Assembly (NCBI GenBank): GCA_965238175.1 | Contig: CBDEGZ010000003.1 | Coordinates: 2,720,001-2,784,000 of the forward strand | DNA length: 64,000 nucleotides | From: Gammaproteobacteria bacterium | Lineage (GTDB): Bacteria > Pseudomonadota > Gammaproteobacteria > CAJXQU01 | Reading direction: 5' to 3' | Shown here: one piece after another, positions 2,997 to 48,840 of the stretch | Numbering within the stretch: the first letter of the stretch is position 1 | How the letters are laid out: each line of letters starts with the position of its first letter | Position numbers and translations under genes: made by a program | Notes under the pieces: model-generated | What the model saw: the letters and a program-made list of their open reading frames with translations, nothing else | Databases searched by the model: none | What the model was told of the DNA's origin: nothing

Positions 2997-5078
2997 TTAA
3001 AACAACTCTTCAACAGTATCGTCGGAGTTGGTTGTTACCGATTTAGAGAAAGGATTTAGATGCCCTGTATCTGAATTATCCTCATGAAAATCAAACTCAT
3101 CTTTTTCCTTATCTAAATACCCATCTTTCTGTTGTTGCAACCAAGGCGGTGATTCTTGATCGTGATCTTTCATATTCACAAAGTGATTGTTATCTTCAAT
3201 TGCTCCACCAATCTGAATATGCTCAGAAATAAATGAATCTTCGTTCACTTTGGCAGTACTTTCCGGCTCTATAAGAATAAGATCATCTTCACCTAAAGTA
3301 TTAAATTCTTCTAATATGATCTGATCATCTGTAAGTTCCAATGCCTCAGTTTCTTTTTGCCTGAACTCATTTTTATTTATCTTTGTTTCGATAAGTTCGA
3401 GCATTAAATTTTCTTCAGTAGTAGAAAATACATCATCTAAACTTTCATCGTAGTTCTGATATTGCGGTTTTATCTTTACCAAATCCACAGGATCTGTTTG
3501 TACCATTTCCAATTCATTATCGGATGTTATGTCAACAGGTTCGTCCATCAGGGTTGTTTGAGCAGGTAACCTTTCTTCAACGCCTAGCATAGATATATCT
3601 TCTTCATTGAAGTCAATTATCAGATTTTCATTAGGTAAAGGTAAAATATCAGAATCAATCGACTCTGATTGTACATCGTCTAACGTATCTACATGTGTAG
3701 GATCACTTGCTATTAAACCCTCACTCATAGATATATCTTCTTCATTGAAGTCAATTATCAGATTTTCATTAGGTAAAGGTAAAATATCAGAGTCAATCGA
3801 CTCTGATTGTACATCGTCTAATGTATCTACATGTGTAGGATCACTTGCTATTAAACCCTCACTCATAAATATATCTTCTTCATTGAAGTCAATTATCAGA
3901 TTTTCATTAGGTAAAGGTAAAATATCAGAGTCAATCGACTCTAATTGTACATCGTCTAACGTATCTACATGTGTAGGATCACTTGCTATTAAACCCTCAC
4001 TAAATCCATTGTTTGTTAATGAGACTTCTGTTAAATCACCTATAGAAACTTCAGGTTGTCTACCGTTTTTTTTTGACTCAGTCAAGTCTACTTTCTTTTC
4101 TACAGCATCTAATACCTGACCTTCGTTAGGGCCAGATAACACCGTTTCCAGAATACTCTTCTGTTGAACTGGTTCGATATTACTTTCAGAAATAACCGTA
4201 TCCAAACGATCTGCAACAAGTACATCTATCATGTCTTCAACAAGTGAGTTTTGAAAATCTATATCAGAGAAATCGTTATCCATTTCTCGTACTATATTTA
4301 ACACATCAGTTGCAGAAACTATATCCGTCCCTTTCAGACAAGCAGCTAACAGAATCCTTTCACAAATCATATTGATCTTCGCAGGGATCCCTTTTGAATG
4401 TTGATGAACAGCAATGAATGCTTCAGGAGAAATTGCTGGGTTACCAATCCAACCCACCGTTCTTAAGCGATGGAAGATATAGGCTTTTGTTTGCTGTTGG
4501 TCAAAATATTCCAAGTGATATTTCGCCACGATTCTTTGTTTTAATGGTTCAAAATTATCTGAAGAGATCTGTTCTTTTAAACGCGTTTGTCCAAATAGAA
4601 TTATTTGGATCAAAGAATTGTTATCAGAGATAATATTCATCAACATTCGTAATTCGTCGATTGCTGAATCTGATAAACTTTGTGCTTCGTCTACTATAAC
4701 TACGACTCGTTGATTATTCGTTTGACACTCTAATAAAAGATGCTCAATCGACTTCAACAAGCTGACTTTTGATAAATCTTCGTAGGGAAGGTTTAGCTCT
4801 GCTGCCACATAACGCAATAATTCACCGCTATCTAACTGGGTATTAACAATTCGAGCTATAACAATATTAGTATCATCCAACATATACTGTAGCGCGGTCA
4901 TCAAGGTTGTTTTACCCATTCCTGAATCACCGGTAACTACAATAAAACCCTGCCCATTCCCCAAACCTTCGCCAAGATACAACAACGCTTTTTTATGCGT
5001 ATTACTGTTAAAGTAAAAACGTGGATCTGGGTTTATACCGAATGGTTTCCCACTGAATTTGAAATAGTTAACGTACAT
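2997..5078 (-). CDS. ExeA/GspA-family AAA ATPase with long acidic repeat-containing C-terminal tail
   Basis: N-terminal YFKFSGKPFGINPDPRFYF, Walker A GDSGMGKTT, Walker B VVIVDEAQ, GIPAKINMICE; C-terminal ~420 aa are D/E-rich. Confidence 0.85.
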   Translation of the reverse strand: MYVNYFKFSGKPFGINPDPRFYFNSNTHKKALLYLGEGLGNGQGFIVVTGDSGMGKTTLMTALQYMLDDTNIVIARIVNTQLDSGELLRYVAAELNLPYEDLSKVSLLKSIEHLLLECQTNNQRVVVIVDEAQSLSDSAIDELRMLMNIISDNNSLIQIILFGQTRLKEQISSDNFEPLKQRIVAKYHLEYFDQQQTKAYIFHRLRTVGWIGNPAISPEAFIAVHQHSKGIPAKINMICERILLAACLKGTDIVSATDVLNIVREMDNDFSDIDFQNSLVEDMIDVLVADRLDTVISESNIEPVQQKSILETVLSGPNEGQVLDAVEKKVDLTESKKNGRQPEVSIGDLTEVSLTNNGFSEGLIASDPTHVDTLDDVQLESIDSDILPLPNENLIIDFNEEDIFMSEGLIASDPTHVDTLDDVQSESIDSDILPLPNENLIIDFNEEDISMSEGLIASDPTHVDTLDDVQSESIDSDILPLPNENLIIDFNEEDISMLGVEERLPAQTTLMDEPVDITSDNELEMVQTDPVDLVKIKPQYQNYDESLDDVFSTTEENLMLELIETKINKNEFRQKETEALELTDDQIILEEFNTLGEDDLILIEPESTAKVNEDSFISEHIQIGGAIEDNNHFVNMKDHDQESPPWLQQQKDGYLDKEKDEFDFHEDNSDTGHLNPFSKSVTTNSDDTVEELF
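3588..4001. repeat. Coding tandem repeat, 3 x 138 bp (46 aa)
   Basis: Units start at 3588, 3726 and 3864 and differ by only a few bases; peptide SEGLIASDPTHVDTLDDVQ(S/L)ESIDSDILPLPNENLIIDFNEEDI(S/F)M. Confidence 0.97.
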
Positions 5079-5133
5079 TTCCTTGTTCGTTTTTCCGACG
5101 ACACTCCATAAATAACAACCTTGTTACCTAGTT

Positions 5134-5160
5134 GTGTCGGCAAAAGCTCACATCTCTTTA
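5134..5160 (-). promoter_or_regulatory. Sigma-28 (FliA)-type promoter of the ExeA-like ATPase
   Basis: TAAAGAGA-N11-GCCGACAC on the minus strand versus consensus TAAAGTTT-N11-GCCGATAA. Confidence 0.75.
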
Positions 5161-5180
5161 ATCGGACTTTGAGATTCTTC

Positions 5181-6050
5181 CTATTCTTTATGACAGGTTC
5201 CAATCGAATTTTTGGCACAAATTTGGCCATCTTTCCAAACTGCCTGATCGAGAATGGCGCCTTGTAAATCTGCCCCATCAAGATCAGCACCTCTAAGATC
5301 TGCATGACTTAGATCTGCCTTAATCAATGATGCAGCTTGTAAAACAGCCAAGCTAAGATTTACACCTTTTAAACTAACTCTGTCCAAATTAGCATTCGTC
5401 AGATTCGCACCAGCAAGATCAGAATAGGAAAGATCGGCTTCAGTCAAATTCGTACCCTGGAGATCAACTCCGATCAATGATGCATTTCTGATCAAAGCTG
5501 CAGATAGATTTTTTTGGCTAAAATTTAAATTATCAAAATCACAATTATCCCAAACAACACCCGGTTCGGAAGGTGCTTCGCAGTCAATAAAAATTAGTGG
5601 ATCAGAACCTTTCAAAAAGAATCCCAATATAACAATCGCAATGATTGTAAAAATAATTGACTTAACCGGAAAACGTTCTTCCTTACGGCTTTCATGTATC
5701 GCATCTAAGAGCTGTGTTCGGCCTTTTCTACGTGCAATATCTTCCTCAGATTCAGGTTCTCGTCGATCTACTTTTTTACGTTTTTTTTGTGCTGATTCAG
5801 GTTGGGTATCAGCTGCTTGTTCTCGTCTATCAAGACCACTACGTTCTTCATCCTTCAAAAGTGATTCGGTTTCATCACTTGAAAACAGTTCTGGAAAATC
5901 ACTAGCCGCTATCCAACTTTGCTGATCATTACTTAATTTATCGGTGGGCTTAAGGCGTCCGAGTTTCCCCAGTTTGGTTAAAACGACATGTGTAAATGGA
6001 CCCTGGATTTTTTCACCACGTTTAACAAACCACTTTTTACTGTCTGTCAT
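5181..6050 (-). CDS. Membrane-anchored pentapeptide-repeat protein with N-terminal GYF_2-like domain
   Basis: WFVKRGEKIQGPF (GYF_2-like), one TM helix (IIFTIIAIVILGFFL), A(D/N)L-type pentapeptide repeats, flanking Cys residues. Confidence 0.75.
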   Translation of the reverse strand: MTDSKKWFVKRGEKIQGPFTHVVLTKLGKLGRLKPTDKLSNDQQSWIAASDFPELFSSDETESLLKDEERSGLDRREQAADTQPESAQKKRKKVDRREPESEEDIARRKGRTQLLDAIHESRKEERFPVKSIIFTIIAIVILGFFLKGSDPLIFIDCEAPSEPGVVWDNCDFDNLNFSQKNLSAALIRNASLIGVDLQGTNLTEADLSYSDLAGANLTNANLDRVSLKGVNLSLAVLQAASLIKADLSHADLRGADLDGADLQGAILDQAVWKDGQICAKNSIGTCHKE

Positions 6051-6062
6051 AAGCAATTTTAC

Positions 6063-6089
6063 TCAAGTTTTATGCCAATTAGTCGCTAA
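6063..6089 (+). promoter_or_regulatory. Sigma-28-type promoter of fliK (likely leaderless)
   Basis: TCAAGTTT-N11-GTCGCTAA ending 7 nt before ATG 6097; no Shine-Dalgarno. Confidence 0.65.
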
Positions 6090-6096: not shown

Positions 6097-7296
6097 ATGA
6101 ATAGTCCGGTTCAAACTTCTCAACAATCAGGTCAAATTGCACAAACAAATACAGCAATTCAAAAACCTGTCCAAACTCAGCTATTGCAACCACAAAATGC
6201 AACGGCGACGGCGATTAAAAATTGGGCTACAGGACAACTCATAAAAGCCACTGTCCTGGAACAATTATCAAATTCATCACTTTTATTAAAAGTTGGCAAT
6301 TTAAAGCTCTCGGCTAATACGAATGTTCTTTTATCTGCCGGATCACAACTTAACTTGAAAGTTATCCGTACTGGTGAACAACCTTCTTTACAAATTATAC
6401 AAAATAATCCTAAATCTGCTGAACAAACTAATCTTAATGCATTAAGACAAATCTTACCAAAACAGGCACCACTCGCAGAATTTTTTTCCAATATAAAAAA
6501 CATTAGCTCGGGGGAACAACGTCTCCCACTAACCGTACAACAAGCACTCAATGTGATTCAGGCCGGATTAGCGTCGCGGGCGGATTTAACTAATCCAGAA
6601 AAAATAAAAAAAGCACTTAAAGAAAGTGGTGTTTTTCTTGAATCAAACCTGGGCAAATCAAATTCAACTAAATCAGCAGGATCAAACCTTATTGAAGGTG
6701 ATTTAAAAGGTAAATTATTACGCCTTGTAACCTTAATCAGTAGCGAAAGCACCAGTTCAACTAAACAAACAGAACAAAAACAAGGTACGTCTAATAACAG
6801 TTTGCTGAGCTTTCTATCAAATAATAAATTAATCCCCGAATTACAACGTCATGTTGAATCAGCCATAGCTCGCATACAATTAAACCAGCTTAATTCTCTA
6901 CCTGTTACAGAACAAAACCAACATGCCATTCTTTTAGAATTACCTATAAAAGAAAAAGAAAAGATTGATATTATTTCTCTCAAAATAAGTGAAGAAGAAA
7001 ATCAAAAGGAAGATCAAGAATCACAAAAGCAATGGGCAATAAATTTATCGTTCAAATTAGAAGGTTTAGGGAGTTTACATGCAAAATTAGTTTTGGGTGG
7101 CCATAAAATTCAAGCCACTTTGTGGGCAGAAGATCAAACTACTTTTGAGTTAATACAAAACAATATCGACCTATTACAACAACGCCTAACAGACGTTGAA
7201 TTTATTGATCCAAAAGTAAATTGCTATCAAGGTAAACCAGAACCAACCAATTCCATTAATCCAGCAAATAAAGATTTGATCGACATAAAAATATGA
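6097..7296 (+). CDS. fliK: Flagellar hook-length control protein FliK-like
   Basis: LKESGVFLES, DLKGKLL, ARIQLNQL and C-terminal T3S4-like WAINLSFKLEGLGSLHAKL; start set at ATG 6097 to avoid overlap with the divergent gene. Confidence 0.8.
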   Translation: MNSPVQTSQQSGQIAQTNTAIQKPVQTQLLQPQNATATAIKNWATGQLIKATVLEQLSNSSLLLKVGNLKLSANTNVLLSAGSQLNLKVIRTGEQPSLQIIQNNPKSAEQTNLNALRQILPKQAPLAEFFSNIKNISSGEQRLPLTVQQALNVIQAGLASRADLTNPEKIKKALKESGVFLESNLGKSNSTKSAGSNLIEGDLKGKLLRLVTLISSESTSSTKQTEQKQGTSNNSLLSFLSNNKLIPELQRHVESAIARIQLNQLNSLPVTEQNQHAILLELPIKEKEKIDIISLKISEEENQKEDQESQKQWAINLSFKLEGLGSLHAKLVLGGHKIQATLWAEDQTTFELIQNNIDLLQQRLTDVEFIDPKVNCYQGKPEPTNSINPANKDLIDIKI

Positions 7297-17201: not shown

Positions 17202-18482
17202 TTAGGAAGGCTCTGATAAAACCGATGAAACAATGTTAATAGAGATCAACTTTCTTGTTAATGCGGCAGAGAGTGCTTTATATATTTTTACTTGACAAGG
17301 CTGAGAAAGATTTTCTATTAGCTCATAAGTTAGCTTTATCACTCTGGTTTGAGTAGTCGCTGTAATAGTTGTGGTATATGGCTCTCTAGTTATAAATGAA
17401 ACCTCACCAAAACTATCACCAATATTAATACTCTCGGTAGAAAATTCACCTTTCATAAGCACATAAAAACCCTGAACAAGCTGATCTTGCTGAATAATCT
17501 GGGCACCTTGATTAAATTTCAACCAGATACAGCCACGACTAATCACTTTAATTTCATTATCATCAAAATCATCAAAAAAGTTCAGAGCTCTGACTTCACT
17601 TTCTTTATCTGTGAAGACATTTGCTGTGTCTTTCACAGAATAAATATGTTTTAAACATTTGATCATTTCTGAAGCAGAGTGGAAACGTAGCTTTGGATCT
17701 TTTCTCAAAGCACGCATGATGAACTTCACAAGCTCATCTGAAAGTTCAGGTTTGAAATCTAATGGGCTAGCGGGAGCTTCATTCACAACCTTAAAGATCA
17801 ATTTAGAAAAACTTTCTGAGGCAAAAGGGTGTTTACCAGTTAACAACTCATACATTACAACACCCAGTGAGTAGAGATCTGTTTGGTAGGTAATAACGTC
17901 TTCCTGGATTTGTTCAGGAGACATATAGCGAGGAGAACCAACAAAACCAGTTGACATTGTTATTTCAAAACCAGGTTTGTTTACATAAGCAATACTAAAG
18001 TCTGCTAACTTAACCTTTTTATCTTCTGTTACAAGTAAATTTGCAGGTTTTATATCTCGATGTATAACACCCATAGAATGCATATATTCAAGTCCTGATG
18101 CACATTGTATAAGCAACTCCACTGCTTGTTCTGGTGTTAATAAATTTTCATTAGAAATATACTCTTTAATCGTTCGAGCATGTTTGACCAACTCCATAAC
18201 AATAAAATGTTTACCTTGATCATTACCATAATCAAATACTCGCATGATATTTGAATGGTTTAATAGCCGTGCAGTTTTAGCCTCACGAATAAACATCTCG
18301 TTAAGCTGTCGTGCCTGGAGTTTGTCTTTTACTTGATACGAACGCGATACCTTGATCGCTACAGACTGCTCTGCAATTGGATCAAATGCTTCATAAACTG
18401 TACCCATACTACCATGAGCTAATCTTTCAATAATTTGATATTTCCCAAGCCTTTTAGGGATTGTATGCTTTGGCTTATTCAC
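17202..18482 (-). CDS. Hanks-type Ser/Thr protein kinase with C-terminal cyclic-nucleotide-binding domain
   Basis: VAIK, HRDIKPAN, DFS, YMSPEQ; C-terminal GDSFGEVSF cNMP-like motif; no TM helix. Confidence 0.85.
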   Translation of the reverse strand: MNKPKHTIPKRLGKYQIIERLAHGSMGTVYEAFDPIAEQSVAIKVSRSYQVKDKLQARQLNEMFIREAKTARLLNHSNIMRVFDYGNDQGKHFIVMELVKHARTIKEYISNENLLTPEQAVELLIQCASGLEYMHSMGVIHRDIKPANLLVTEDKKVKLADFSIAYVNKPGFEITMSTGFVGSPRYMSPEQIQEDVITYQTDLYSLGVVMYELLTGKHPFASESFSKLIFKVVNEAPASPLDFKPELSDELVKFIMRALRKDPKLRFHSASEMIKCLKHIYSVKDTANVFTDKESEVRALNFFDDFDDNEIKVISRGCIWLKFNQGAQIIQQDQLVQGFYVLMKGEFSTESINIGDSFGEVSFITREPYTTTITATTQTRVIKLTYELIENLSQPCQVKIYKALSAALTRKLISINIVSSVLSEPS

Positions 18483-18537
18483 GATTTTTTATTGTTTTTT
18501 AGCCTGTGTTTTAGAAAATGCTATTTGGAGGTTCAGA

Positions 18538-20151
18538 TCAAGATTGTTCTTCAGCATGTTGTATAGGATTGTTGATCAATTGACTATGATCTTCAATCGA
18601 AAAAGAAAAAGTACTTCCTTTATCCAATTCTGATTCAACCATTATCTGACCTCCCATCAACTCTATTAACTGTCTACTGATCACAAGTCCTAACCCTGTG
18701 CCACCATAATTTCGAGTAGTAGAAGCATCCGCTTGTACAAAAGCATTAAAAATAACGTCTTGCCTATCTTCCGGGATACCGACACCACTATCTTCAACTT
18801 CAAACAAAACATATTCTTTACTTTGTGTAGTTAAAAGTCTTATTTGAACAAATCCATCACTCGTGAATTTAATTGCATTCCCAACTAAATTGTACAATAC
18901 CTGTCGTAATCGGCCTGGATCTGTAATAATTGATTTTAGTTCTTCATTTTCAATGGTGTAATCTAGTAAAACACCACTCTCTCTCGCCGAACCAGAAAGT
19001 AGATTGATCACATCTTTTATAATTTCTTCAGGATTAAAACTAATTTTTTCTAACTCGACTGAATTCGTACTCAGCTTTGACATATCGAACACATTCTCAA
19101 TTAGCTCTAATAGTGACTCTGCTGATCTATGAGCAACATTTATATATTCTAATTGTTCTACACTCATTTCCGACTGTTTTAATAAATTATGCACACCCAT
19201 AACGCCATTAAGTGGTGTCCTAAGTTCATGACTCATGTTACTTAAAAAGTCAGACTTCACTCTGGTGGCTTCGATCGCTTCTTCTGATGCTTTCTCAGCC
19301 TTGATTTCGGCCAATTTTCTTCTTGTTATATCTTGACTAATACCGATGACACGATGAGCTTTACCCCCCTTATCATGTGTCACTACCTTTGCACGTCCAG
19401 ATGTCCACATCCAGTCGCCTGATGATTTAAGCATCCTGAATTCACAGTCAAAATAATCAAGTCTGCCAAACAAATGCTGACACATCATTTTCTTCACATT
19501 CGACCAATCTTCCGGATGTACCAGATCTTGCCACTCCGAAATATAAGAATGTAATTTAGCATGCTCATAACCTAACATACCCATAAGACCGCCATGGAAA
19601 ACTTCCCGAGTATCTACGTGCCAATCCCACATGGCCAGATCCCCAGAACTTAACGCTAATTTAATTCGATTATTTGCTTGAGATAATTCCAGTACATTTG
19701 AACGTAATAATGCCTCTTGATTCACAGTAGCACTTATATCTGAGACTTGAATTAAACAATGATGTTTATCTTCAGTACCTAATTTAATCGGCCTTATCTC
19801 AATCGCTTGTGGAATTTTTTCTGATTGATTCGGGTTAAACAAAGGTAAAGGAGCTTTATGAATTGATTGAGCCAAGATTGATGAGCTACCATTTTTAATG
19901 GCATTATTAACAACGTAGAAAAAATGCTTATCTGTTATTTCTGAAAAAATAGAACAATAGCTTTTACCGATAACTTCATTCTGTGTTAGACCGCTCTTTT
20001 CTTCCATCCAACGATTCCACAAAATTACAGAACCATGCGGGTCTATCATCACTATACCGATATTAATAGCTTCAATTATCTTATTCATCGTGTGTTTACT
20101 ATATTCCGATTTGATCTGATCTGAACTGATCAACTGTTTTATTCTACTCAT
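18538..20151 (-). CDS. Cytoplasmic PAS-PAS sensor histidine kinase (no receiver domain)
   Basis: SNMSHELRTPL H-box, NLVGNAIKFT, DSGVGI, GGTGLGL; PAS motif VHPED. Confidence 0.9.
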   Translation of the reverse strand: MSRIKQLISSDQIKSEYSKHTMNKIIEAINIGIVMIDPHGSVILWNRWMEEKSGLTQNEVIGKSYCSIFSEITDKHFFYVVNNAIKNGSSSILAQSIHKAPLPLFNPNQSEKIPQAIEIRPIKLGTEDKHHCLIQVSDISATVNQEALLRSNVLELSQANNRIKLALSSGDLAMWDWHVDTREVFHGGLMGMLGYEHAKLHSYISEWQDLVHPEDWSNVKKMMCQHLFGRLDYFDCEFRMLKSSGDWMWTSGRAKVVTHDKGGKAHRVIGISQDITRRKLAEIKAEKASEEAIEATRVKSDFLSNMSHELRTPLNGVMGVHNLLKQSEMSVEQLEYINVAHRSAESLLELIENVFDMSKLSTNSVELEKISFNPEEIIKDVINLLSGSARESGVLLDYTIENEELKSIITDPGRLRQVLYNLVGNAIKFTSDGFVQIRLLTTQSKEYVLFEVEDSGVGIPEDRQDVIFNAFVQADASTTRNYGGTGLGLVISRQLIELMGGQIMVESELDKGSTFSFSIEDHSQLINNPIQHAEEQS

Positions 20152-20154
20152 TTT

Positions 20155-20784
20155 TCAACCTTCAGCTTCTAATTCAAATACTTGTATTACTCTCTCTCTA
20201 AACTTATCTAAGTTGAACATGTCTATAAGAAACGTAATATAACCTTGAATATCTTTACCTTTTACATTGAACATAACCTTTGTTTTTAATAATAGGATAT
20301 GATTATTTTCCTCTTCTATACCATCGCTACTTTTGAATATGCTTTTAGTATTACCGTATGCAAATTTAGGTATTTCATTATTGATCTCTTCACCTAACAA
20401 ATCTGCAATACTGCTTAGACAACTAGTCAGAATAATATTACCAACTTCTGTTAGTGCTTCTTGTTCCATCTCAGTCAATACACCAAGTGGCAATTCATCA
20501 CTTATTAGAAGTCGAACCAACTCAAGACTGCCTTCATCAGAAAAAAATATAAAGGCTTCGCCTTCAAAAGCACCCGCAAATTTCTCTCTTACGCCTGTTT
20601 CGGAATTATCTTCTTCACCCGTAAGCGCTCTAGCTGCTGCTTGCCTTTCCAAAACCTCAACATGGGGAATAGACAATTTTATTTCTTGATTAACCATCAG
20701 ACTTAAAGCTGAGGCTGCATGACCAACTCCAATGTTTAAAATCTCTGAAAATGCATCTTTTTCCAAATCAGTTAAAACGACCAT
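20155..20784 (-). CDS. cheC: CheC-family phosphatase
   Basis: Two E-x2-N motifs (SEILNIG, TEVGNII). Confidence 0.8.
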   Translation of the reverse strand: MVVLTDLEKDAFSEILNIGVGHAASALSLMVNQEIKLSIPHVEVLERQAAARALTGEEDNSETGVREKFAGAFEGEAFIFFSDEGSLELVRLLISDELPLGVLTEMEQEALTEVGNIILTSCLSSIADLLGEEINNEIPKFAYGNTKSIFKSSDGIEEENNHILLLKTKVMFNVKGKDIQGYITFLIDMFNLDKFRERVIQVFELEAEG

Positions 20785-20787
20785 GAG

Positions 20788-22938: not shown

Positions 22939-22979
22939 TTACTCAATTAAATTGATTACAGTTTTACTTGAGTCGAGTT

Positions 22980-23282
22980 TTATTCAACCGTCATTAATTT
23001 ATCAAAATTTGCGATCTTTAATATTTCTTTAATATTAGAATCCGCATTTGCAATCGTCACTGATTCCTTTCGACCGCCGGCATGTTCACGTAATTGCAGT
23101 AACATTCCTAATGCTGAGCTATCCATATATGATGCACCTTGCAAATCGACAACATAATTGCACCCTGCTTCATCACCTTTATACACATCGCGAAGATCTT
23201 TATGTATATTGAAATCAAATCGATCCGTGATTTGAATTCTCTTAGTTTTACCATCACCAATAGACTGTGCTGAAATTGACAT
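22980..23282 (-). CDS. STAS anti-anti-sigma factor (HsbA-like)
   Basis: RFDFNIH, YMDSSALGML with phosphorylatable Ser, ILKIANFDKL. Confidence 0.88.
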   Translation of the reverse strand: MSISAQSIGDGKTKRIQITDRFDFNIHKDLRDVYKGDEAGCNYVVDLQGASYMDSSALGMLLQLREHAGGRKESVTIANADSNIKEILKIANFDKLMTVE

Positions 23283-23307
23283 AAGTATTACTCCTTTGTT
23301 TACTTAT

Positions 23308-26623: not shown

Positions 26624-26638
26624 TATACTTTCCTTAAA

Positions 26639-28098: not shown

Positions 28099-28160
28099 AT
28101 TATTTTCTCTAAATACATATAACTTTTATGTGTATTCCAAATAAATTAAGTTTTAACTTT

Positions 28161-30130: not shown

Positions 30131-30940
30131 TTGAAAAGAATCTGATGGTTCCTGCCAGATCACTTTATTTTCCTTTTTATTAGTATCTTTCATAAAGACG
30201 ACAAGCAATTGCAAAGCTGCTGCATCAACACTTGAAACTTCCGAACAGTTAATTTCCAAATCCTGTCCTTTATCAAAAAATGTTTTAAATTGATCGTGTA
30301 ACTCAGCAACGTCTGCAATTGTGATTATTCCTTCAAGCTTAAATATTTGCATTTCCAACTCCGTATCCTTTTGTTGATCAGTTATTTGTATCACTTCGGT
30401 TGGAGCTTCATCTGAGTCATCAACTAAGGACTCAACAGTCTCTTCAATTTCGGGCTCAAGTTCTTCAACCGCTTCTTCAAACTTATCTTCTTTTAGTGCA
30501 TCTGAAGGTTCTTTTATTTCTTCAGGTTGTGACTTACTAACTTCAAACACGGGTTCTAAATCGTCTTCTGCTAGTCCTTGTGGAAACTTTGTTATTTCAT
30601 CACTTTCTGGTTGAACTTCTTCAACCACTTGCGCTAAATACTCCTCTTCTACAAATTCATTAGGAAATTCAGCTACTTCTCCAGGTTCAGATTTAACTAC
30701 TTCGACTGTTTGCTCTAAAACCTCTTCCGATTTTTCTGGATGAATATCTTGTTGGATCTCATCTACGCTTTCTTCAATGTGATCTTCATCAACTACAAAA
30801 ATATCCTTTGCATCTTCACTTTCTTCCTTTAACCAAGCTAATGGATCAATTCCAATAATCGGTTTTTTATTTGTTCGTTTCTTACCTTCAAAAACTTGAG
30901 CGGCTGGATTAACATTTTCTGTAATTATCTTTTCCATCAT
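30086..30940 (-). CDS. Protein with basic N-terminal peptide, long acidic linker and C-terminal STAS domain
   Basis: KKRTNKKPIIGIDPLAWL N-terminus; C-terminal VSSVDAAALQLL (STAS_2-like); ATGA overlap with parA. Confidence 0.75.
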   Translation of the reverse strand: MMEKIITENVNPAAQVFEGKKRTNKKPIIGIDPLAWLKEESEDAKDIFVVDEDHIEESVDEIQQDIHPEKSEEVLEQTVEVVKSEPGEVAEFPNEFVEEEYLAQVVEEVQPESDEITKFPQGLAEDDLEPVFEVSKSQPEEIKEPSDALKEDKFEEAVEELEPEIEETVESLVDDSDEAPTEVIQITDQQKDTELEMQIFKLEGIITIADVAELHDQFKTFFDKGQDLEINCSEVSSVDAAALQLLVVFMKDTNKKENKVIWQEPSDSFQATLELMGFKDEFRM

Positions 30941-31812
30941 GCGGTCAGTTCCTCAGACACTTCCACCGTTTCAGGAAAACCAACTTGTTTATTAGCAAAA
31001 TCATCCGCAAGTTTTTGGGTGAAATCTGGATCAAAACCTTTTAAAACAGTTCTGGAATACATCAGATCAGCTGCGAGTGTCTTATAATCAATTGCCCCAT
31101 TACTTTTTGATCGATACTCGAAAATTGTATTTCCCCGTCCTGGGCATTCAGCTAATGCAGCTGTTTCTCTAATTTGAGTAGCTAAAACATTGTCAGGAAA
31201 ATAGTGCAATAATTTTGCCAACACCTCTTTTCCTAAACGGCGACGTTTATGGAAGCGTGTTACTACGATCCATTCCCGTAAGCTGTAACCTAATTTATTT
31301 TTAAACGTTTTTATTGTTGCCATCAGAAATGACAAACCTTCAAGAGATAGATAGTCGCCCGTTACTGGAATTAAAACTTCATGACTCGCAATTAATGCAT
31401 TAATTGCTAACAAGCCAGAACTTGGCGGACAATCGATCAAAACAAAATCTTGCTCTGATAATTTACCTTTTAAAGCTTGTTTTAATAGCTCACCTTTTTT
31501 CAGTCCACCATTGCCGAGTTGCTCAATACGGTTAAGCTCTGTTCCAGCGGGAATAAGAACAAGATTATCTCGAACTGAAATCATCACATCTTCAATCGCA
31601 GCTCCTTCGAGTAAAACCTCATCCACTCCAGAGTATTCTCTGCCGTTTACACCAAGGCTCGTCCCAAGGTGTGACTGTGGATCCATATCAATTACGGTTA
31701 CCCTATTCCCAGCTAATGCTAAGGCATGTGCCAGGTTAGCCGTTGTCGTGGTTTTACCTACTCCACCTTTCTGATTTATTACAGAAATAATTCTCATTTG
31801 AATCCCCATCAC
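30937..31812 (-). CDS. ParA/Soj-family ATPase within the chemosensory cluster
   Basis: NQKGGVGKTTT deviant Walker A, IDMDPQ, IDCPPS. Confidence 0.92.
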   Translation of the reverse strand: MMGIQMRIISVINQKGGVGKTTTTANLAHALALAGNRVTVIDMDPQSHLGTSLGVNGREYSGVDEVLLEGAAIEDVMISVRDNLVLIPAGTELNRIEQLGNGGLKKGELLKQALKGKLSEQDFVLIDCPPSSGLLAINALIASHEVLIPVTGDYLSLEGLSFLMATIKTFKNKLGYSLREWIVVTRFHKRRRLGKEVLAKLLHYFPDNVLATQIRETAALAECPGRGNTIFEYRSKSNGAIDYKTLAADLMYSRTVLKGFDPDFTQKLADDFANKQVGFPETVEVSEELTA

Positions 31813-31858
31813 CTTCTTCAGAATCGAATATTTTTACTTTCATGTATATTAAAGAGTC

Positions 31859-34193
31859 CTACCTAAAACTCTTCCCATTCATCCCCACCTATACTCTGAC
31901 TGGCCGCCGCCACCTTTTTTGCCGGTCTCACCGGTGCCGGTGCAGCTTGTTGCTGTGGTGCAGACTCTTCCCATGGGCGTCCACCTGTACGGCGTTCATT
32001 CGCACTGCCTTGTTGTTGATTGCCAGTTTCAAAAAAAGCCATCTGACCCAGCAAGTCACGCGCCTGACTATCCATCGTCTGACTCGCCGCCGCCGCTTGT
32101 TCTACCAGGGCCGCATTTTGCTGCGTGCCTTGATCCATTTGCGTCACCGCTTTGTTCACTTGTTCAATACCCGATGACTGTTCTTGTGAGGCTGCTGCTA
32201 TCTCAGCAATAATGTCGCTCACTTGTTTTGCAGATTCGGTGATTTCATCCAGCATCGTGCCTGACTCATCCACCAGACGAGAGCCGTCTTCAACTTTCTG
32301 TACACTGTCGTTAATCAGGTTTTTGATTTCTTTCGCCGCACCCGCACTACGTTGTGCCAGGTTGCGTACTTCTGAGGCAACTACCGCAAATCCACGGCCT
32401 TGCTCACCTGCGCGTGCCGCTTCTACCGCTGCATTTAGAGCCAGCAGGTTGGTCTGGAATGCGATTTCGTCGATGACGCCAATGATGTCGGAGATCTTAC
32501 GACTGGAGTCGTTGATTTCTGACATCGCTGAGACTGCTTCACCCACTACTTCCCGGCCTTTTTCCGCTTGCTCTTTGGAGCTAACAGACAGTTGATTCGC
32601 CTGACGTGCATTGTCGGCATTTTGTCGGACAGTTCCTGTCAGTTCTTCCATACTAGACGCCGTTTCTTCTAACGAGGACGCTTGTTGTTCTGTGCGGTTG
32701 CTTAGGTCGTTATTACCTTGTGCAATTTCATTTGCTGAGGTCTGGATGTTAGACGCACCTTCGCGGATCTCACTGACCATTTTTAGCAAGTTGGCCACGC
32801 AACCATTGACGGAGGATTGCAGGGTTTTAAATTCACCACTGTATTCACCTTCCATTTGTTGCGTCAGGTTACCGTCAGCGATGGAACTCATCACCCGGGC
32901 TGTTTCTGACATGACGTGTTCTAATTCACGGGCCGCATTTTTTTGTTCGGTAATATTGGTCGCGTATTTAACCACTTTAAAGGGCTTGCCATTTGGATCA
33001 AATATCGGGTTGTAGGATGCTTGTAACCAAAGTTCAGTTCCGCCTTTACCCATCCGTTGGTATTGACCCGCGCTCAGTTGGCCATTGCCAAGGTTTTTCC
33101 AAAACGATTGGTATTCGACGCTGGCACGTTGCTCTGGGTCAACAAACATACTATGGTGTTTGCCGACGATTTCATCCAGGCTATAGCCAATGGTTGAGCA
33201 GAAGTTTTCGTTCGCCGTTAAGATCGTACCGTCCAATTCAAATTCAATCACCGCTTGTGCTTTGCTTATCGCATCAAGCTGGCCTGAGAAGTCGGCTTTT
33301 TCAATCGTTTCTTGGGTAATGTTACTAGCGTATTTGACCACTTTGAAGGGCTTGCCTTCTGGATCAAGTATCGGATTGTAAGACGCTTGTAACCAGATCT
33401 CGCTACCGTCTTTGGAGATCCGTTTATATTGGCCAGCATCGAATTGACCACTGCCAAGGTTTTTCCAGAATTGCTGATATTCCGCACTGGCACGTTGCTC
33501 TGGGTCAACAAATAGACTGTGGTGTTTGCCGATAATTTCATCGAGACCGTAACCGACCGTGGCGCAGAAGTTTTCATTCGCCGTTAAGATTGTGCCGTCC
33601 AGTTCGAATTCAATCACCGCTTGCGCTTTGCTGATGGCGTCAAGCTGACCTGAGAAGTCAGCTTTTTCGATCGTTTCTTGGGTAATGTTACTAGCGTATT
33701 TGACCACTTTGAAGGGCTTGCCATCGAGATCAAATATCGGGTTGTAAGACGCTTGTAACCAGATCTCGCTACCGTCTTTGGAGATCCGTTTATATTGGCC
33801 AGCATCGAATTGACCACTGCCAAGGTTTTTCCAGAATTGCTGATATTCCGCACTGCCACGTTGCTCTGGGTCAACAAATAGACTGTGGTGTTTGCCGACA
33901 ATTTCATCGAGACCGTAACCGACTGTGGTGCAGAAGTTTTCGTTCGCCGTTAATATCGTACCGTCCAGTTCGAATTCAATCACCGCTTGCGCTTTGCTGA
34001 TCGCAGCGAGCTGGCCCTCGTAATCTGCAAGCTTAAGTCGTTCATCTTCCGCTGTTGCTGCGTCATTAGTCGTATTGCTATCTTTTGCCATGTGTTTATC
34101 CTCTGTCTCTTTTAACGGCGCTACTTCTGTTCTTCTATAGTTAAATCTTTACATTCGAAATTCGTCTTTAAAGCCCATCAATTCTAGTGTCGC
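31859..34193. repeat. Segmental duplication, copy B (3-PAS receptor plus upstream DNA)
   Basis: Matches 28161-30130, including the 5' leader and the last 45 bp of the STAS gene. Confidence 0.95.
31863..34091 (-). CDS. Soluble MCP with 3 PAS domains, HAMP and C-terminal pentapeptide EWEEF
   Basis: Three 122-aa PAS units; signalling domain protein-identical to that of 28165-30027. Confidence 0.93.
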
Positions 34194-34201
34194 CGTGGGG
34201 A

Positions 34202-34735
34202 TCAGCTAACTGCCGTATGATCAAAATTGATCATTTGATCAATATCGAGCAATACGACCATTTTTCCATCGACCGATGTCAAACCTTTTACAAAATTAAT
34301 ATCAATACCTTCTCCTGATTCAGGAGCCTCCTGGATCGATTCATGTTCTATTGAGTAGACATCTGATATCGCCTCGACCATAAAACCGACGGTTCTTTCT
34401 TTGTCACCATCTTCAATCTTAAGTACAATAACAACGGTTGTTTTACTAGATTCAATCGGATCTAATCCAAACCGTTGACGCAGATCAACTACAGGAACAA
34501 TTGCGCCACGTAAATTGATCACGCCTTTTAGATAATCTGGTGCGTTCGGAATTTCTGTTGCTCTATCCCAACATTTGATCTCTTGTACACGAAGAATATC
34601 CACTCCGTATTCTTCGCCTGCTACAAAAAAACTAAGGAACTGAGCAGAATTTAAATCTTGTTCTGCATTCATCATGGCAAATATCTCAGCCTGATCTGTT
34701 GCTATTTTTTCTGCTTGTGTTTCTACCATTTCCAT
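34202..34735 (-). CDS. cheW: Chemotaxis adaptor
   Basis: YGVDILRVQEI, GVINLRGAIVPVVDLR. Confidence 0.96.
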   Translation of the reverse strand: MEMVETQAEKIATDQAEIFAMMNAEQDLNSAQFLSFFVAGEEYGVDILRVQEIKCWDRATEIPNAPDYLKGVINLRGAIVPVVDLRQRFGLDPIESSKTTVVIVLKIEDGDKERTVGFMVEAISDVYSIEHESIQEAPESGEGIDINFVKGLTSVDGKMVVLLDIDQMINFDHTAVS

Positions 34736-34754
34736 AAATTTATTTCCTGTAGGC

Positions 34755-36896
34755 TTAAGCTACTGCGTCTTCTTTGATCACTTCCTGTGGTTTCGCTATT
34801 ACTTTATGTTTGATGGTTCTTGATAATGCGGAAAGACTCGATAAATCGAGAATCATTGCGACGGTGCCATCACCCAAAATAGTTGCTCCAGAAATACCTT
34901 CAACTTTGTCGTAGTTAGTTTCCAGACTTTTGATTACCACCTGTTGTTGGGCCAACAGGTCGTCTACAAAAATACCCACTTTCTGACCTTCAGCTTCAGC
35001 AACCACCAATAAGCCTTTTTCAAGCTCAGTACTGTCTGGAGTAATGTTGAAAATACTGTGTAGACGAAGCACTGAAATGTATTCTTCGCGTAATTTATAT
35101 AACTCAGCTTTACCAGCGACGGAATTGCAGTTTTCGGTTTCAATTTGTAACGACTCAACAATCGATATTAATGGGATAATGTAGACTTGTTCGCCTACAC
35201 GAATTAATTGTCCATCCAATATTGCAAGTGTTAGTGGTAAGCGGATTGTAAAAGTTGAACCTTTGCCTGTTTCGGATTTTATTTCGATCTTGCCACCAAG
35301 ATCGCGGATGTTTCTCATCACAACATCCATACCCACACCGCGACCTGATACATCACTTACTTCGGTGGCAGTTGAGAAACCTGGAGCAAAGATCAATTCA
35401 TGGATCTTGTCATCCGATAAAACTTCATCTGGACCAACCAATCCATTTTCTTGAGCTTTACTAAGAATTCGTTCTTTATTTAAACCTGCGCCATCATCGA
35501 TAATTTCGATGACAATATTGCCACCTTCATGAAAGGCATTCAAATTAATCGTACCCACTTCTGATTTTCCAGCAGCGAGTCTTACATCTGGCATTTCAAT
35601 ACCATGGTCAAGGGAGTTTCTTACCAGGTGAACTAGTGGATCACCAATTTTCTCCATTACAGATTTATCAAGTTCTGTTGATTCACCTGTTAGTTTCAAT
35701 TCTATGTTTTTGCCCAGTTTTGAAGCTAAATCTCTGACTAATCGTGGGAAGCGGTTAAAGGAGAAACTGATCGGCAGCATTCTAATCTGCATAACGTTCT
35801 CTTGTAACTCGCGAGTGTTACTTTTGAGTTCATCAATACCATCTTGAAGTTTTTCAAGATCTTCAACTTTAAAATTTTCACTAATTTGACTGAGCATTGA
35901 TTGCGTAATAACCAATTCACCGACCATGTTGATCAGCGTGTCAATTTTGTCGGTTCCAACACGTATAGACGTACTCTCACTCGCGGCACTCTTGTTTGCT
36001 TTTTTCTTTGAGGATGCAGCTGCTGGAGCAGGCGCGACACTTTTTTCTGGTTCTGATTTCTCAGCGACTGGAGGAGCTTGGTCAGGAGTCGGCTCCGTGG
36101 CAATTGATACCGAATCTACTTCGTCAGGCGTTGTATCTAACGACCATTGCTCAGCCATTTGACTAATTGTTAAATCACAATCTTCATCTACCCATTCAAA
36201 AATTTCTAAAATATCTGCTTCTGAACAGTCGCCTTGTAAATCAATCTCCCATGACATATACGATTCTTCAGGATTTAAATCCTCAAGAGAGGGTAATTCT
36301 GTATGGTTCACAACAACGGTTAACTCACCCAGATGTTCTAATTCGCGGAACATTTTTACTGGATCATTACCCGTTTTAAACAAATGCGGATGTGGAAAAA
36401 ATGTTATTTTCCATAAACGATCTGTTGCTTCCTCAGCTACTGGAGTATCAGTAGATTCCGCTTCAGCAATCACTTCCGTAGAATTTTTACTCGCATCATT
36501 ACTAGAACCATTTGCAAGCATTGTCTCAAGATCTTGCTGCAAAGTGTTTTTGGTATCCTTATCAATTTCCTCACCAGCATCAACAGCTGATAGCATTTCG
36601 CGTAAACAATCGACACTGAGTAAAAGCAGATCAACACCTTCTCGTGTTACTGCTCTCACACCATCTCGCATCTCATCCAGTAAGGTTTCCATTACGTGGG
36701 TAAAACTGGCCACGTCTGTAAATCCGAATGTTCCAGCCCCTCCTTTTATGGAATGTGCTGCACGAAAAATTGTATTGATTTCTTCGTCATCTGCTGCACC
36801 CAGATCAAGATCCATCAAACCCGTTTCCATAATATCAAGTCCTTCGAAACTTTCTTCGAAGAAAATCTGATGAAATTGGGACATATCAATGGACAT
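34755..36896 (-). CDS. cheA: Chemotaxis histidine kinase
   Basis: FRAAHSIKG HPt, HLVRNSLDHG, GFSTA..VSGRGVGMDVV, CheW-like P5. Confidence 0.98.
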   Translation of the reverse strand: MSIDMSQFHQIFFEESFEGLDIMETGLMDLDLGAADDEEINTIFRAAHSIKGGAGTFGFTDVASFTHVMETLLDEMRDGVRAVTREGVDLLLLSVDCLREMLSAVDAGEEIDKDTKNTLQQDLETMLANGSSNDASKNSTEVIAEAESTDTPVAEEATDRLWKITFFPHPHLFKTGNDPVKMFRELEHLGELTVVVNHTELPSLEDLNPEESYMSWEIDLQGDCSEADILEIFEWVDEDCDLTISQMAEQWSLDTTPDEVDSVSIATEPTPDQAPPVAEKSEPEKSVAPAPAAASSKKKANKSAASESTSIRVGTDKIDTLINMVGELVITQSMLSQISENFKVEDLEKLQDGIDELKSNTRELQENVMQIRMLPISFSFNRFPRLVRDLASKLGKNIELKLTGESTELDKSVMEKIGDPLVHLVRNSLDHGIEMPDVRLAAGKSEVGTINLNAFHEGGNIVIEIIDDGAGLNKERILSKAQENGLVGPDEVLSDDKIHELIFAPGFSTATEVSDVSGRGVGMDVVMRNIRDLGGKIEIKSETGKGSTFTIRLPLTLAILDGQLIRVGEQVYIIPLISIVESLQIETENCNSVAGKAELYKLREEYISVLRLHSIFNITPDSTELEKGLLVVAEAEGQKVGIFVDDLLAQQQVVIKSLETNYDKVEGISGATILGDGTVAMILDLSSLSALSRTIKHKVIAKPQEVIKEDAVA

Positions 36897-36954
36897 AAAC
36901 TACTCCTCGTTTAATGTTGACTAATAGTTATAACCTGACAAGCCAGCATACGAA

Positions 36955-37317
36955 TTAACCGACTACTTTTTTCACCGTGCTTAATAATTGGTTAGGATTG
37001 AATGGTTTTACCAGCCAGCCGGTGGCACCTGCAGATTTTCCTTCTGCTTTTTTGTCTGCCGAAGATTCTGTCGTCAACATAAGCATTGGCGTAAACTTAT
37101 AACTAGGAAGTTTTCGTAATTCCCGAATTAGTGTGATGCCATCCATATTTGGCATATTCACATCCGTTAGTACCATGTTGACACTCTGACCTTTTGCTTT
37201 GTTTAATGCGTCGACACCATCCACCGCTTCAATGACGTCGTAGCCTGCGCCTTTCAGTGTAAACGTTACCATTTGACGCATAGATGCAGAATCATCGACC
37301 GCTAAAATACTTGGCAT
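36955..37317 (-). CDS. cheY: Chemotaxis response regulator (CheY2-type)
   Basis: ILAVDDSASMR, LTDVNMP, MLTTES, GWLVKPF. Confidence 0.93.
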   Translation of the reverse strand: MPSILAVDDSASMRQMVTFTLKGAGYDVIEAVDGVDALNKAKGQSVNMVLTDVNMPNMDGITLIRELRKLPSYKFTPMLMLTTESSADKKAEGKSAGATGWLVKPFNPNQLLSTVKKVVG

Positions 37318-37387: not shown

Positions 37388-37414
37388 TTATCGACAATTG
37401 CTGGTTATGCTTTA
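37388..37414 (-). promoter_or_regulatory. Sigma-28-type promoter of the che operon
   Basis: TAAAGCAT-N11-GTCGATAA, 70 nt upstream of cheY. Confidence 0.8.
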
Positions 37415-47301: not shown

Positions 47302-47325
47302 GATCAAAAACACAACTAATTGTTC

Positions 47326-48579
47326 TTACTGCTCGTACAAAGGCAATTTTGCACAAAGTTCAAGTACTTCACTCTTAACGCGAGCGATCGTCGCTTCATC
47401 ACCCATGTTATCCATAATGTCACAGATCCAGGTTGCAACTTGTGCTGCATCTGCTTCTTTAAAGCCACGCGTTGTAATTGAAGGCGTACCAATTCGAATA
47501 CCACTGGTTACAAAAGGAGATTGTGGATCATTTGGAACCGCATTTTTGTTAACGGTGATATTTGCGCTACTTAATGCAGCATCCACTTCTTTACCGGTCA
47601 GACCTTTTTCAATCATGTCGACTAGGAAAAGATGATTATCAGTTCCACCTGAAACAATTTTCAAACCACGAGCAAGAAAAACATCAACCATTGCATTGGC
47701 ATTTTTCTTAACTTGTTGAATGTACGTTTTGAATTCAGGTTCCATACACTCTTTGAAAGCCACGGCTTTAGCCGCGATTGTGTGCATGTGTGGTCCACCT
47801 TGATAGGCAGGGAAAACCATGAAATTGATTTTCTTCTGGATATCTTCGTTAGCTTTACCCATGATGATACCTGAGCGTGGGCCTCGGAGTGTTTTATGAG
47901 TAGTAGATGTCGTGATATCTGCAATACCTACTGGGCTTGGGTATTCACCCGTTGCGACTAAACCAGCAACGTGGGCAATGTCAGCCACCATGATGGCGCC
48001 GACTTTGTCACAGATATCACGGAAACGCTGCCAGTCCCATTCACGTGAATAAGCAGAGAAACCCGTCCAGATCATTTTTGGCTTATGTTCAAGCCCTAAT
48101 GCTTCAGCTTGATCATAATCAACAACACCGTTGTCATCTAAGCCATATTGCACAGCATTAAAAACACGACCTGAAACGTTAACATGTGCACCATGCGTTA
48201 AATGTCCACCATGAGCAAGGCTCAAACCCATAATCGTGTCCCCAGCTTCTAATAGCGCAAGGTAAACTGCACCATTTGCTTGTGAGCCTGAGTGAGGTTG
48301 AACGTTCGCCCAATCTGCACCAAATAATTTACAGGCTCGATCTATTGCTAGCTGTTCTACAACATCAACATACTCACAACCACCATAGTAGCGTTTGCCA
48401 GGATAACCCTCGGCATATTTATTCGTCAGAACCGAACCCTGACATTCCAGAACACGTGGGCTGGTCATATTTTCAGAAGCGATCAATTCGATATCTTCTT
48501 CCTGACGCTTCCTTTCCCCTTCCATTGCTGCATATAGCTCTGGATCAAAACCTTCCACCTTCATATCTTTCGTAAACAT
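47326..48579 (-). CDS. glyA: Serine hydroxymethyltransferase
   Basis: [40 protein letters not shown]. Confidence 0.98.
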
Positions 48580-48806
48580 TGGGTAAAGTCTCCCATTTAA
48601 ATTAAAAACTTACATAAAACCGAATGACCGTTCTCTACAATTACGCAAATGTTTAGATAAAACGGCCTACATACAAACCATATCACCAGAGAAAACAACC
48701 AGGAGTTAGCATCGAACTAAATCTAGAATATCAAATATTACAGCGTTGTTATAGATATTCTCTAACATTATATAAGTAAAAAAATATAACTACTCGCAAA
48801 CTTAAC

Positions 48807-48833
48807 TCAAGAAATATCTATAAATGTCGCTAT
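48807..48833 (+). promoter_or_regulatory. Sigma-28-type promoter of cyaA (likely leaderless)
   Basis: TCAAGAAA-N11-GTCGCTAT ending 7 nt before ATG 48841; no Shine-Dalgarno. Confidence 0.6.
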
Positions 48834-48840
48834 ACAACGT

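Follow-up and report, generated by a model that had tools for sequence, protein, structure and literature searches.

The window analysed here is a 64-kb stretch of DNA (G000:C3:2720001-2784000) from the 3.35-Mb genome (40% G+C) of an uncultured gammaproteobacterial lineage. It carries five sites that resemble promoters of the flagellar sigma factor FliA (sigma-28), placed before the cheY gene of an F7-like chemosensory cluster, a gene for a McpA-like methyl-accepting chemotaxis protein (MCP), an AAA_22 ATPase gene, a FliK-like gene and a gene for a class I adenylate cyclase, cyaA. The sites and the genes next to them are listed below, with gene labels taken from Pfam and NCBIfam scans of the window proteins and distances and lengths in nucleotides (nt) or amino acids (aa).

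37388..37414, minus strand: sigma-28-type promoter of cheY, TAAAGCAT-n11-GTCGATAA, 70 nt 5' of cheY, 18.6 bits.
36955-37317, minus strand: cheY of the F7-like cluster (Pfam/NCBIfam).
24542..24568, minus strand: sigma-28-type promoter of the McpA-like gene, TAAAGATA-n11-ACCGATAA, 31 nt 5' of the gene, 20.2 bits.
23308-24510, minus strand: McpA-like MCP, 400 aa (Pfam, NCBIfam).
5134..5160, minus strand: sigma-28-type promoter of the AAA_22 ATPase gene, TAAAGAGA-n11-GCCGACAC, 55 nt 5' of the gene, 16.3 bits.
2997..5078, minus strand: AAA_22 ATPase, 693 aa, with three acidic repeats of ~45 aa (PF13401).
6063..6089, plus strand: sigma-28-type promoter of the FliK-like gene, TCAAGTTT-n11-GTCGCTAA, ending 7 nt 5' of the ATG, 18.0 bits.
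6097..7296, plus strand: FliK-like gene, 399 aa, C-terminal Flg_hook domain (PF02120, 51.6 bits against a cut-off of 29.8).
5181..6056, minus strand: pentapeptide-repeat protein, divergent from the FliK-like gene (Pfam).
48807..48833, plus strand: sigma-28-type promoter of cyaA, TCAAGAAA-n11-GTCGCTAT, ending 7 nt 5' of the cyaA ATG, 17.3 bits.
48841..51741, plus strand: class I adenylate cyclase cyaA (PF01295 and PF12633, 366 and 207 bits).

The boxes, positions and common 11-nt spacer that a preliminary description of this DNA had reported for the five sites were all recovered. Each site pairs TAAAG(TTT) or TCAAG with a -10 element of the GCCGATAA type, with a gap of 11 nt between the octamers and an offset of 19 nt. 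A degenerate pattern derived post hoc from the five sites gave 5 matches where 0.28 were expected, which is a weak test only. For scoring, a two-block matrix was seeded with the E. coli consensus TAAAGTTT-n11-GCCGATAA (PMC2859248, Table 1) and refined on 71 upstream-oriented intergenic sites of the genome, with the window excluded. It converged on TAAAGTTT-n11-GCCGATAA, with C tolerated at position 2 of the -35 box and CGCT present in 21 of the 71 -10 boxes. A scan with the consensus itself allowed up to two mismatches; at no more than one mismatch and with canonical spacing it returned 17 intergenic and 14 genic sites, the intergenic DNA amounting to 12% of the genome by a crude calling of chromosomal frames (3046 open frames, 88% coding).

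Scored against all intergenic DNA, a check that had been proposed for them, the five sites stand well above the background density, at 16.3-20.2 bits. They rank from 13th (the mcpA promoter) to 87th among all positions in the genome and are the sole matches of at least 15 bits on either strand of the window. Their scores match the range found before flgM (18.6 bits), flagellin (18.7), flaG (18.4), motA (18.5) and cheV (15.3). A threshold of 16 bits leaves 63 sites on the 0.317 Mb of intergenic strand-positions that are oriented upstream of genes, a density of 198/Mb; the rest of the intergenic DNA has 10.5/Mb and coding regions have 4.6/Mb. The excess is ~19- to 43-fold, and ~1.5-3.3 of the 63 would be expected by chance. 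Two-fold cross-validation at 14 bits or more gave 204-243 sites/Mb in the held-out halves, against 20-22/Mb in other intergenic and 14-16/Mb in coding DNA, which is an approximately ten-fold excess. With the matrix from the opposite half of the genome the window sites score 20.0 (mcpA), 16.4 (cheY), 15.3 (cyaA), 14.4 (ATPase) and 13.3 bits (FliK-like gene).

Conservation was examined in six congeneric genomes (G001-G006), in which the N-terminus of CyaA is 54-88% identical and the neighbourhoods are the same, by scanning the upstream regions with the matrix on both strands. Sites were found in 6/6 congeners before the FliK-like gene (18.0-22.3 bits), the ATPase gene (15.7-18.8 bits) and cyaA (15.8-20.6 bits). 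The matches to mcpA and cheA in G003 are cut by contig ends, so that mcpA and cheY were counted in five congeners, with sites in 5/5 (17.2-21.6 bits) and 4/5 (17 bits or more), respectively; in G001, G002 and G004 the cheA and mcpA matches lie on separate contigs. Conservation in related genomes thus extends to all five sites: of 28 promoter regions in congeners, 27 have an orthologous match of at least 15.7 bits, and no off-target match of 15 bits or more occurs in the congener upstream stretches scanned. Across the congeners, the -35 pentamer has a mean pairwise identity of 1.0 and the -10 octamer one of 0.80-0.88 (box values that are inflated, as discussed below), while the spacers have diverged to 0.32-0.44 (0.73 before the FliK-like gene) and the 20 nt preceding the sites to 0.27-0.39. 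The fixed distance between promoter and gene across the congeners is independent of the choice of sites by matrix. The FliK-like promoter occupies almost the whole of a divergent intergenic space of ~40 nt, in a pentapeptide gene/FliK-like gene neighbourhood that is the same in 6/6 congeners. Its spacer (window 6071-6081, and orthologues) keeps 'tatgcc' in six of seven genomes, unlike the other four spacers, and the divergent pentapeptide gene begins ~13 nt upstream of its -35 box, such that this DNA may serve that gene too.

The product of the window cyaA has the Adenylate_cycl and Adenyl_cycl_N domains of class I adenylate cyclases and scores 864 bits with NF006984, below the equivalog cut-off of 1300; NCBIfam equivalogs were matched below their cut-offs. 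Among 301 genomes of the class that were sampled, 80 had a cyaA match (a tally that includes an unpublished genome, G045, which was left unread), and the best 27 non-congeneric loci, from other families and with 1.5 kb of flank, were compared. The full two-box matrix is not convincing here, with matches of at least 15 bits in 5/27 loci on the forward and 4/27 on the reverse strand. By contrast with control windows, the -10 octamer alone is enriched: 14/27 loci have one that scores at least 10.4 bits no more than 160 nt from the cyaA match, versus 3.7% of 1344 control windows, and exact GCCGATAA occurs in 7/27 versus 0.5%, the control windows including the true ones. The octamer lies 7-21 nt upstream of the first in-frame cyaA start in 12 of the 14 and 44 and 97 nt upstream in the other two, often with a G-rich stretch in between. 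At canonical spacing the -35 boxes outside the genus read TGAAT, TCCAG, TGTAG and so on, not TAAAG. A first sample of eight cyaA regions had given one site of 18.3 bits, two of 13.2-13.6 bits, two of 10.3-10.8 bits and three regions with nothing at 9 bits or above. A fliA gene scores above the cut-off in 25 of the 27 cyaA genomes, and of the two others one has the octamer and one does not. At four of the 27 loci (L204, L205, L213 and L218) a FliA-type site of 16.6-18.6 bits points away from cyaA, and such reverse-strand sites may be promoters of the divergent neighbour.

The cyaA and FliK-like promoters of the window lie unusually near to the genes. In six genomes the cyaA octamer ends 7 nt before the ATG, and in the seventh 8 nt before it; the octamer of the FliK-like site ends 7 nt before the start in 7/7 genomes, the start being ATG in four and GTG in three. 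There is no in-frame start codon upstream of the cyaA ATG, and the Pfam domain begins at residue 26. The sigma-28 transcript of E. coli aer starts 6 bp past the octamer (PMC2859248), and this rule, applied to an octamer 7 nt from the start codon, predicts mRNAs for cyaA and the FliK-like gene that are leaderless or carry only 1-2 nt ahead of the start codon. Across the genome, four upstream sites of at least 14 bits have a start codon opening at least 100 codons at a distance of 7-8 nt, and none has one at 3-6 or 9-10 nt. The other two abutting genes encode an HDOD-receiver-GGDEF protein (G000:C3:1234134-1236150) and a histidine kinase (3275297-3276900), with sites of 18.2 and 18.0 bits that end 7 and 8 nt before the ATG. 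All four start-abutting sites have the -10 box GTCGCTA, with the C that is found at that position in 21/71 training sites.

The window sites belong to a large set. The genome has one FliA-family sigma factor above the cut-off (C3:1522732-1523391; TIGR02479, 268 bits versus 189.6), in the order fliL...flhFG-fliA-cheYZAB-motAB, together with flgM and a crp orthologue (317 bits versus 266), and the motif found in the window also precedes the late flagellar genes flgM, flagellin, flaG, motA and cheV. In total, sites of at least 15 bits lie upstream of 73 genes or operons. In addition to the late flagellar genes just named, those that were annotated include four MCPs, four GGDEF, three GGDEF-EAL, two HD-GYP and three HDOD-containing proteins, a PilZ protein, a protein with rhodanese and cyclic nucleotide (cNMP)-binding domains, pilin-like genes, a PilT-like ATPase, a small pentapeptide protein and a second AAA_22 protein just before motA. 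The sigma-28 class 3 promoters of E. coli and Salmonella, among them the proven promoter of E. coli aer (TAAAGATA-n11-GCCGACAT; PMC2859248, Table 1), have the same two octamers, 11-nt gap and CGA core as the sites described here, and the -10 box of the ATPase site is nearly that of aer, GCCGACAT. Receptors, che genes and cyclic-nucleotide enzymes are among the sigma-28 targets on both sides of this comparison. The window genome differs in that ~30% of its matrix sites have CGCT rather than CGAT, in the four sites that abut a start codon and in the addition of a class I cyaA, an ancestral-type F7 cluster and a partner switch to the targets.

The view of the preliminary description that FliA does not typically control class I cyaA agrees with our results, in that the best site upstream of cyaA in E. 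coli K-12 scores 1.6 bits and no report of a class I cyaA in a FliA regulon was found in the literature searched, the supplementary tables of fliA-mutant and start-site papers being outside its scope. FliA regulons themselves are well known.

The cheY and mcpA promoters head two parts of a long minus-strand block, in which the F7-like cluster is followed by mcpA with a partner switch and then, after a gap of 360 nt, by genes for a CheC-like phosphatase and two kinases:

24835..37317, minus strand: F7-like cluster, with cheY, cheA, cheW, an Aer2-like PAS-HAMP receptor of 742 aa, a ParA-like ATPase, a 284-aa STAS protein, a second Aer2-like receptor of 620 aa, a 190-aa protein without a family, cheR, cheD and cheB, which ends at 24835 (Pfam).
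22980-23282, minus strand: STAS anti-sigma antagonist, 100 aa (PF13466).
21145-22938, minus strand: receiver-PP2C-HATPase_c_2 protein (PF00072, PF07228, PF13581).
17202..20784, minus strand: CheC-like phosphatase, PAS histidine kinase and Ser/Thr kinase with a cNMP-binding domain (Pfam).
17202-18482, minus strand: the Ser/Thr kinase with a cNMP-binding domain (Pfam).
13677-14675, minus strand: rpoS, 2.5 kb past the kinase end of the block (NF004207, 456 bits against a cut-off of 394).

The block has the gene order cheY, cheA, cheW, aer2, cheR, cheD, cheB, mcpA, anti-sigma antagonist, serine phosphatase that is described for stage 1 F7 clusters, for which an F6 system elsewhere in the genome is also described (preprint 10.1101/653600). 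Relative to stage 1, the window cluster has three inserted genes (ParA-like, 284-aa STAS and second Aer2) and no STAS gene before cheY, and it coexists with an F6 system with cheZ (fliA-cheY-cheZ-cheA-cheB-motAB, 1.522-1.530 Mb). Its CheA is 55-57% identical to Methylotuvimicrobium and Methylomicrobium records and 36% identical to the F6 CheA of the same genome; the F7 class is a putative assignment from gene order, for which the CheA identities are indirect evidence. The Aer2 model NF041847 matches the C-terminal half of the Aer2-like receptor. The two Aer2-like genes (28165-30027 and 31863-34091) flank the ParA-like and the acidic 284-aa STAS genes, and their products are nearly identical in the N-terminal 35 residues and identical in the C-terminal 45, which looks like a recent duplication within the cluster.

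The cheY promoter has counterparts in more distant genomes. Relatives of this CheA were found at 79 loci in public genomes, of which three with the match less than 900 nt from an end were dropped. Forward sites of at least 15 bits lie within 1.5 kb of cheA at 23 of the remaining 76, and 19 of these 23 are 450-630 nt upstream of cheA, the position of the cheY site in the window; on the reverse strand upstream of cheA there were none at the 76 loci. Three congeners and two Shewanella species are represented among the 23 loci, as are genomes with a G+C content of 58-68%; the Methylotuvimicrobium, Methylomicrobium and Marinospirillum records have no site of at least 15 bits upstream of cheA. Three Shewanella species have just 14.7-16.3-bit sites with a 12-nt gap.

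We consider it highly probable that the five sites are genuine FliA promoters, as part of a regulon of ~60-75 promoters in this lineage; we infer FliA dependence, transcript starts and timing from the DNA sequence. Since relatives conserve all five sigma-28-type promoters, a single FliA programme probably co-expresses the genes or operons behind them. Once the hook-basal body is finished and FlgM has been exported, free FliA would transcribe five units: (a) a stage-1-type F7 chemosensory operon from cheY, (b) mcpA and the genes of a CrsA/CrsR-like partner switch, (c) the AAA_22 ATPase gene, (d) the gene for the FliK-like Flg_hook protein and (e) the class I adenylate cyclase gene. The transcripts of (d) and (e) would begin at the start codon or within 1-2 nt of it. 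Most simply, cyaA is one more second-messenger gene in a regulon that is rich in GGDEF, EAL, HD-GYP, HDOD and PilZ proteins.

More tentatively, we suggest that in many non-enteric Gammaproteobacteria sigma-28 might transcribe cyaA from a start-abutting promoter (leaderless in the present lineage), that completion of the flagellum might thereby induce the synthesis of cyclic AMP (cAMP) and possibly close a loop of FliA, cAMP and the receptor protein CRP, and that F7 arrays and an RpoS/FliA switch might be made in motile and not only in starved cells; this wider proposal could well hold, and we stop just short of calling it probable. In the textbook direction of control, cAMP-CRP turns on the flagellar master genes; cyaA under FliA, if real, would link flagellar assembly to catabolite signalling in the opposite direction. 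CRP can also activate sigma-28 promoters, as at E. coli aer. Inspection by eye revealed nothing convincing as a CRP site near the five window promoters, no scan having been made. For the chemosensory genes, the predicted FliA control of ancestral-type F7 clusters (23/76 loci) would mean that the arrays are built in swimming cells, beside a switch that arbitrates between RpoS and, judging from homology, FliA, and bears on the open question of the role of F7 arrays.

Several points weigh against these interpretations. Sites were counted in the very class of DNA on which the matrix had been refined, albeit with the window left out of training and with cross-validation. The congener sites were chosen by that same matrix, which inflates the identity of the boxes, and the cheY site of G005 scores just 12.8 bits and has a 12-nt gap. 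Those window sites with TCAAG or CGCT variants drop to 13.3-15.3 bits when the half-genome matrix is used. In E. coli, leaderless mRNAs that begin with GTG are translated inefficiently, and GTG is the start codon of three of the seven FliK-like genes. Because the flagellar hierarchy of model organisms requires FliK ahead of the release of FliA, a FliA-dependent FliK would be paradoxical. Finally, known F7 clusters are reported to be RpoS-dependent (PMC7534058), as is F7 expression in Vibrio cholerae. V. cholerae cluster III and the Che2 system of Pseudomonas aeruginosa resemble the window cluster in having cheD, an Aer2-type soluble PAS receptor with a W-x-x-F tail and an F6 system with cheZ; they differ in that their expression is reported to be RpoS- and starvation-dependent (PMC7534058), whereas FliA control is predicted for the window cluster and many of its relatives.

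What the F7 array might signal to is a separate matter, and one answer is compatible with FliA control of the five units. The array might act on the CrsR/CrsA-like switch behind mcpA and so set the balance of RpoS and possibly FliA, in which case the FliA promoters would only place the switch in motile cells and cyaA would run in parallel; we give this explanation very nearly as much credence as doubt. The mcpA-STAS-receiver/PP2C unit (21145..24510) has intergene gaps of 25 and 41 nt, and it places a receiver-PP2C-GHKL protein beside a STAS protein, which is the architecture of CrsR/CrsA (HsbR/HsbA), directly after mcpA as in the che1 locus of Shewanella (PMC9855816). That locus has the same genes, and the last two are CrsA and CrsR, which control the availability of RpoS (PMC9855816). 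CrsR sequesters RpoS, and in Pseudomonas HsbR holds RpoS and HsbA binds FlgM, which frees FliA (PMC6482189). The gene for RpoS is nearby in the window, and stage 1 F7 clusters are described with the anti-sigma antagonist and serine phosphatase (preprint 10.1101/653600). Against these likenesses, homology of the switch was judged from domain architecture and position only, and the link from Che1 to CrsR in Shewanella is itself described as probable. The preliminary description had regarded the output of F7 systems as wholly unresolved, a view that is dated in so far as the block appears to encode a CrsR/CrsA-like RpoS switch, which is a published candidate output (PMC9855816, PMC6482189). By its architecture and position, a FliA-driven switch of this type would in turn influence whether FliA or RpoS is favoured.

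The Shewanella oneidensis che1 (F7) locus shares cheY, cheA, cheW, aer2, cheR, cheD, cheB, mcpA, STAS and receiver-PP2C-kinase genes with the window, which has the extra ParA-like gene, 284-aa STAS protein and second Aer2. It is reported to be a single transcription unit, whereas mcpA in the window has its own conserved promoter. Shewanella McpA signals through the flagellar (F6-type) system (PMC9855816), which fits with a separate FliA promoter for mcpA here. A terminator-like hairpin lies at 24595-24611, just upstream of the mcpA promoter, and a scan of 17000-25000 for terminators and sigma-70 promoters gave counts no higher than those in shuffled sequences.

The preliminary description had gone further and proposed that one late-flagellar programme co-expresses the F7 array, a source of cAMP, a cNMP-binding kinase and an array-tethered ATPase, with cAMP as the output circuit of the array. 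The shared and conserved promoters of the programme, as read from the sequence, survive our analysis, and cyaA and cheY both have one; the cNMP-binding Ser/Thr kinase does close the gene block and a CRP orthologue does exist. Still, we regard a cAMP-specific circuit as improbable. With ~73 genes or operons sharing the promoter type, co-regulation does not mark cyaA in particular as an array partner, and cyaA is 11 kb away from the cluster, in a housekeeping neighbourhood of riboflavin and glyA genes. The kinase is beyond the 360-nt gap and its block has no FliA-type site of at least 15 bits of its own on either strand in the window scan, so that its place in the programme was not upheld. The C-terminal tail that the ATPase was said to share with array proteins, VEELF, was rejected as a link, being found in G000 only, with none of the six orthologues ending in LF. 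Beyond the genus, the sigma-28-type -10 octamer precedes cyaA in 14/27 genomes of other families, the F7 content of which was not part of the comparison. No evidence was found for a link between cyaA and the array beyond shared promoter type and timing, and a dedicated F7 output is unsupported.

It might also be supposed that the boxes are conserved, yet read by another factor or kept for another purpose, and that they resemble sigma-28 promoters without being such. The departure of the -35 boxes before cyaA from TAAAG outside the genus would fit this idea, as would the near equality of forward and reverse full-matrix matches there and the presence of GCCGATAA before cyaA in G117, a genome with no fliA above the cut-off. 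Against it, the congeners retain both boxes with the spacing between them unchanged, and the motif is also found before flgM, flagellin, flaG, motA and cheV in a genome with a single FliA-family sigma factor above the cut-off, which makes this idea if anything a shade less credible than the cAMP circuit. That A+T-rich intergenic DNA produced the sites by chance, as a genome of 40% G+C and the post hoc nature of the initial pattern might suggest, is extremely improbable given the ~1.5-3.3 false sites expected genome-wide, and is contradicted by the genome-wide scores, the cross-validation, the conservation at orthologous positions in diverged genomes and the survey upstream of cheA.

Among the gene labels of the preliminary description, cheY, the McpA-like MCP and class I cyaA stand, and two others call for revision. 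The "ExeA-like" ATPase has only AAA_22, AAA_16 and weak helicase-domain matches and scores 300.5 bits with TIGR03015, below the cut-off of 324.5, over residues 1-268. The N-terminal AAA_22 domain is shared with ExeA/GspA and with XrtA-associated ATPases, but the window protein has no peptidoglycan-binding domain, and its neighbours are the pentapeptide and Flg_hook proteins rather than secretion-system genes. The length of the acidic-repeat region varies among the congeners, with open frames of 390-721 aa. The AAA_22 paralogue before motA (284 aa; C3:1119831-1120685) has its own FliA site of 19.6 bits and lies ~1.5 kb upstream of that gene.

The gene called "fliK" encodes a 399-aa protein with the C-terminal Flg_hook (T3S4) domain of FliK and is better described as an orphan Flg_hook gene. 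It is one of two Flg_hook matches in the genome, both outside the flagellar clusters; it has no NCBIfam match, and the other orphan is a weak FliK match. The fliJ gene (2405986-2406411) is followed by an insertion sequence (IS) transposase gene, which occupies the place where fliK would be expected. The same transposase (HTH_29/rve_3) is found after the FliK-like gene (7704-8738), after fliJ (C3:2404795-2405829) and in an injectisome region (L085:5914-6948). A 26-nt FliA-like string that is repeated ~25 times in the genome appears to be part of a repeated element, probably an IS. The injectisome (non-flagellar type III secretion) cluster (G000:C3:1490000-1505000, L085) adjoins the fliL-fliA flagellar cluster, and one of the orphan Flg_hook proteins, that of the window or that at C3:2717483-2718433, might be its needle-length ruler.

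A short C-terminal tail, x-E-[IV]-E-L-F, ends McpA (5/5 congeners), CheD (3/3) and the 190-aa protein (3/3), and the tail of Aer2 is DEW[ED]EF (3/3). In the window the corresponding 3' ends are at 23308-23325 (McpA), 25973-25990 and 27526-27543, among the McpA-like, CheD and 190-aa genes. Nine proteins of the genome end in ELF, compared with 0.84 expected, and they include two more MCP-like proteins (G000:C3:672178-674148 and 1723709-1725211) and a 164-aa protein with a GGEEF motif (C3:2288390-2288884, not family-scanned). The ELF tail may be a docking peptide distinct from the DEWEEF of Aer2.

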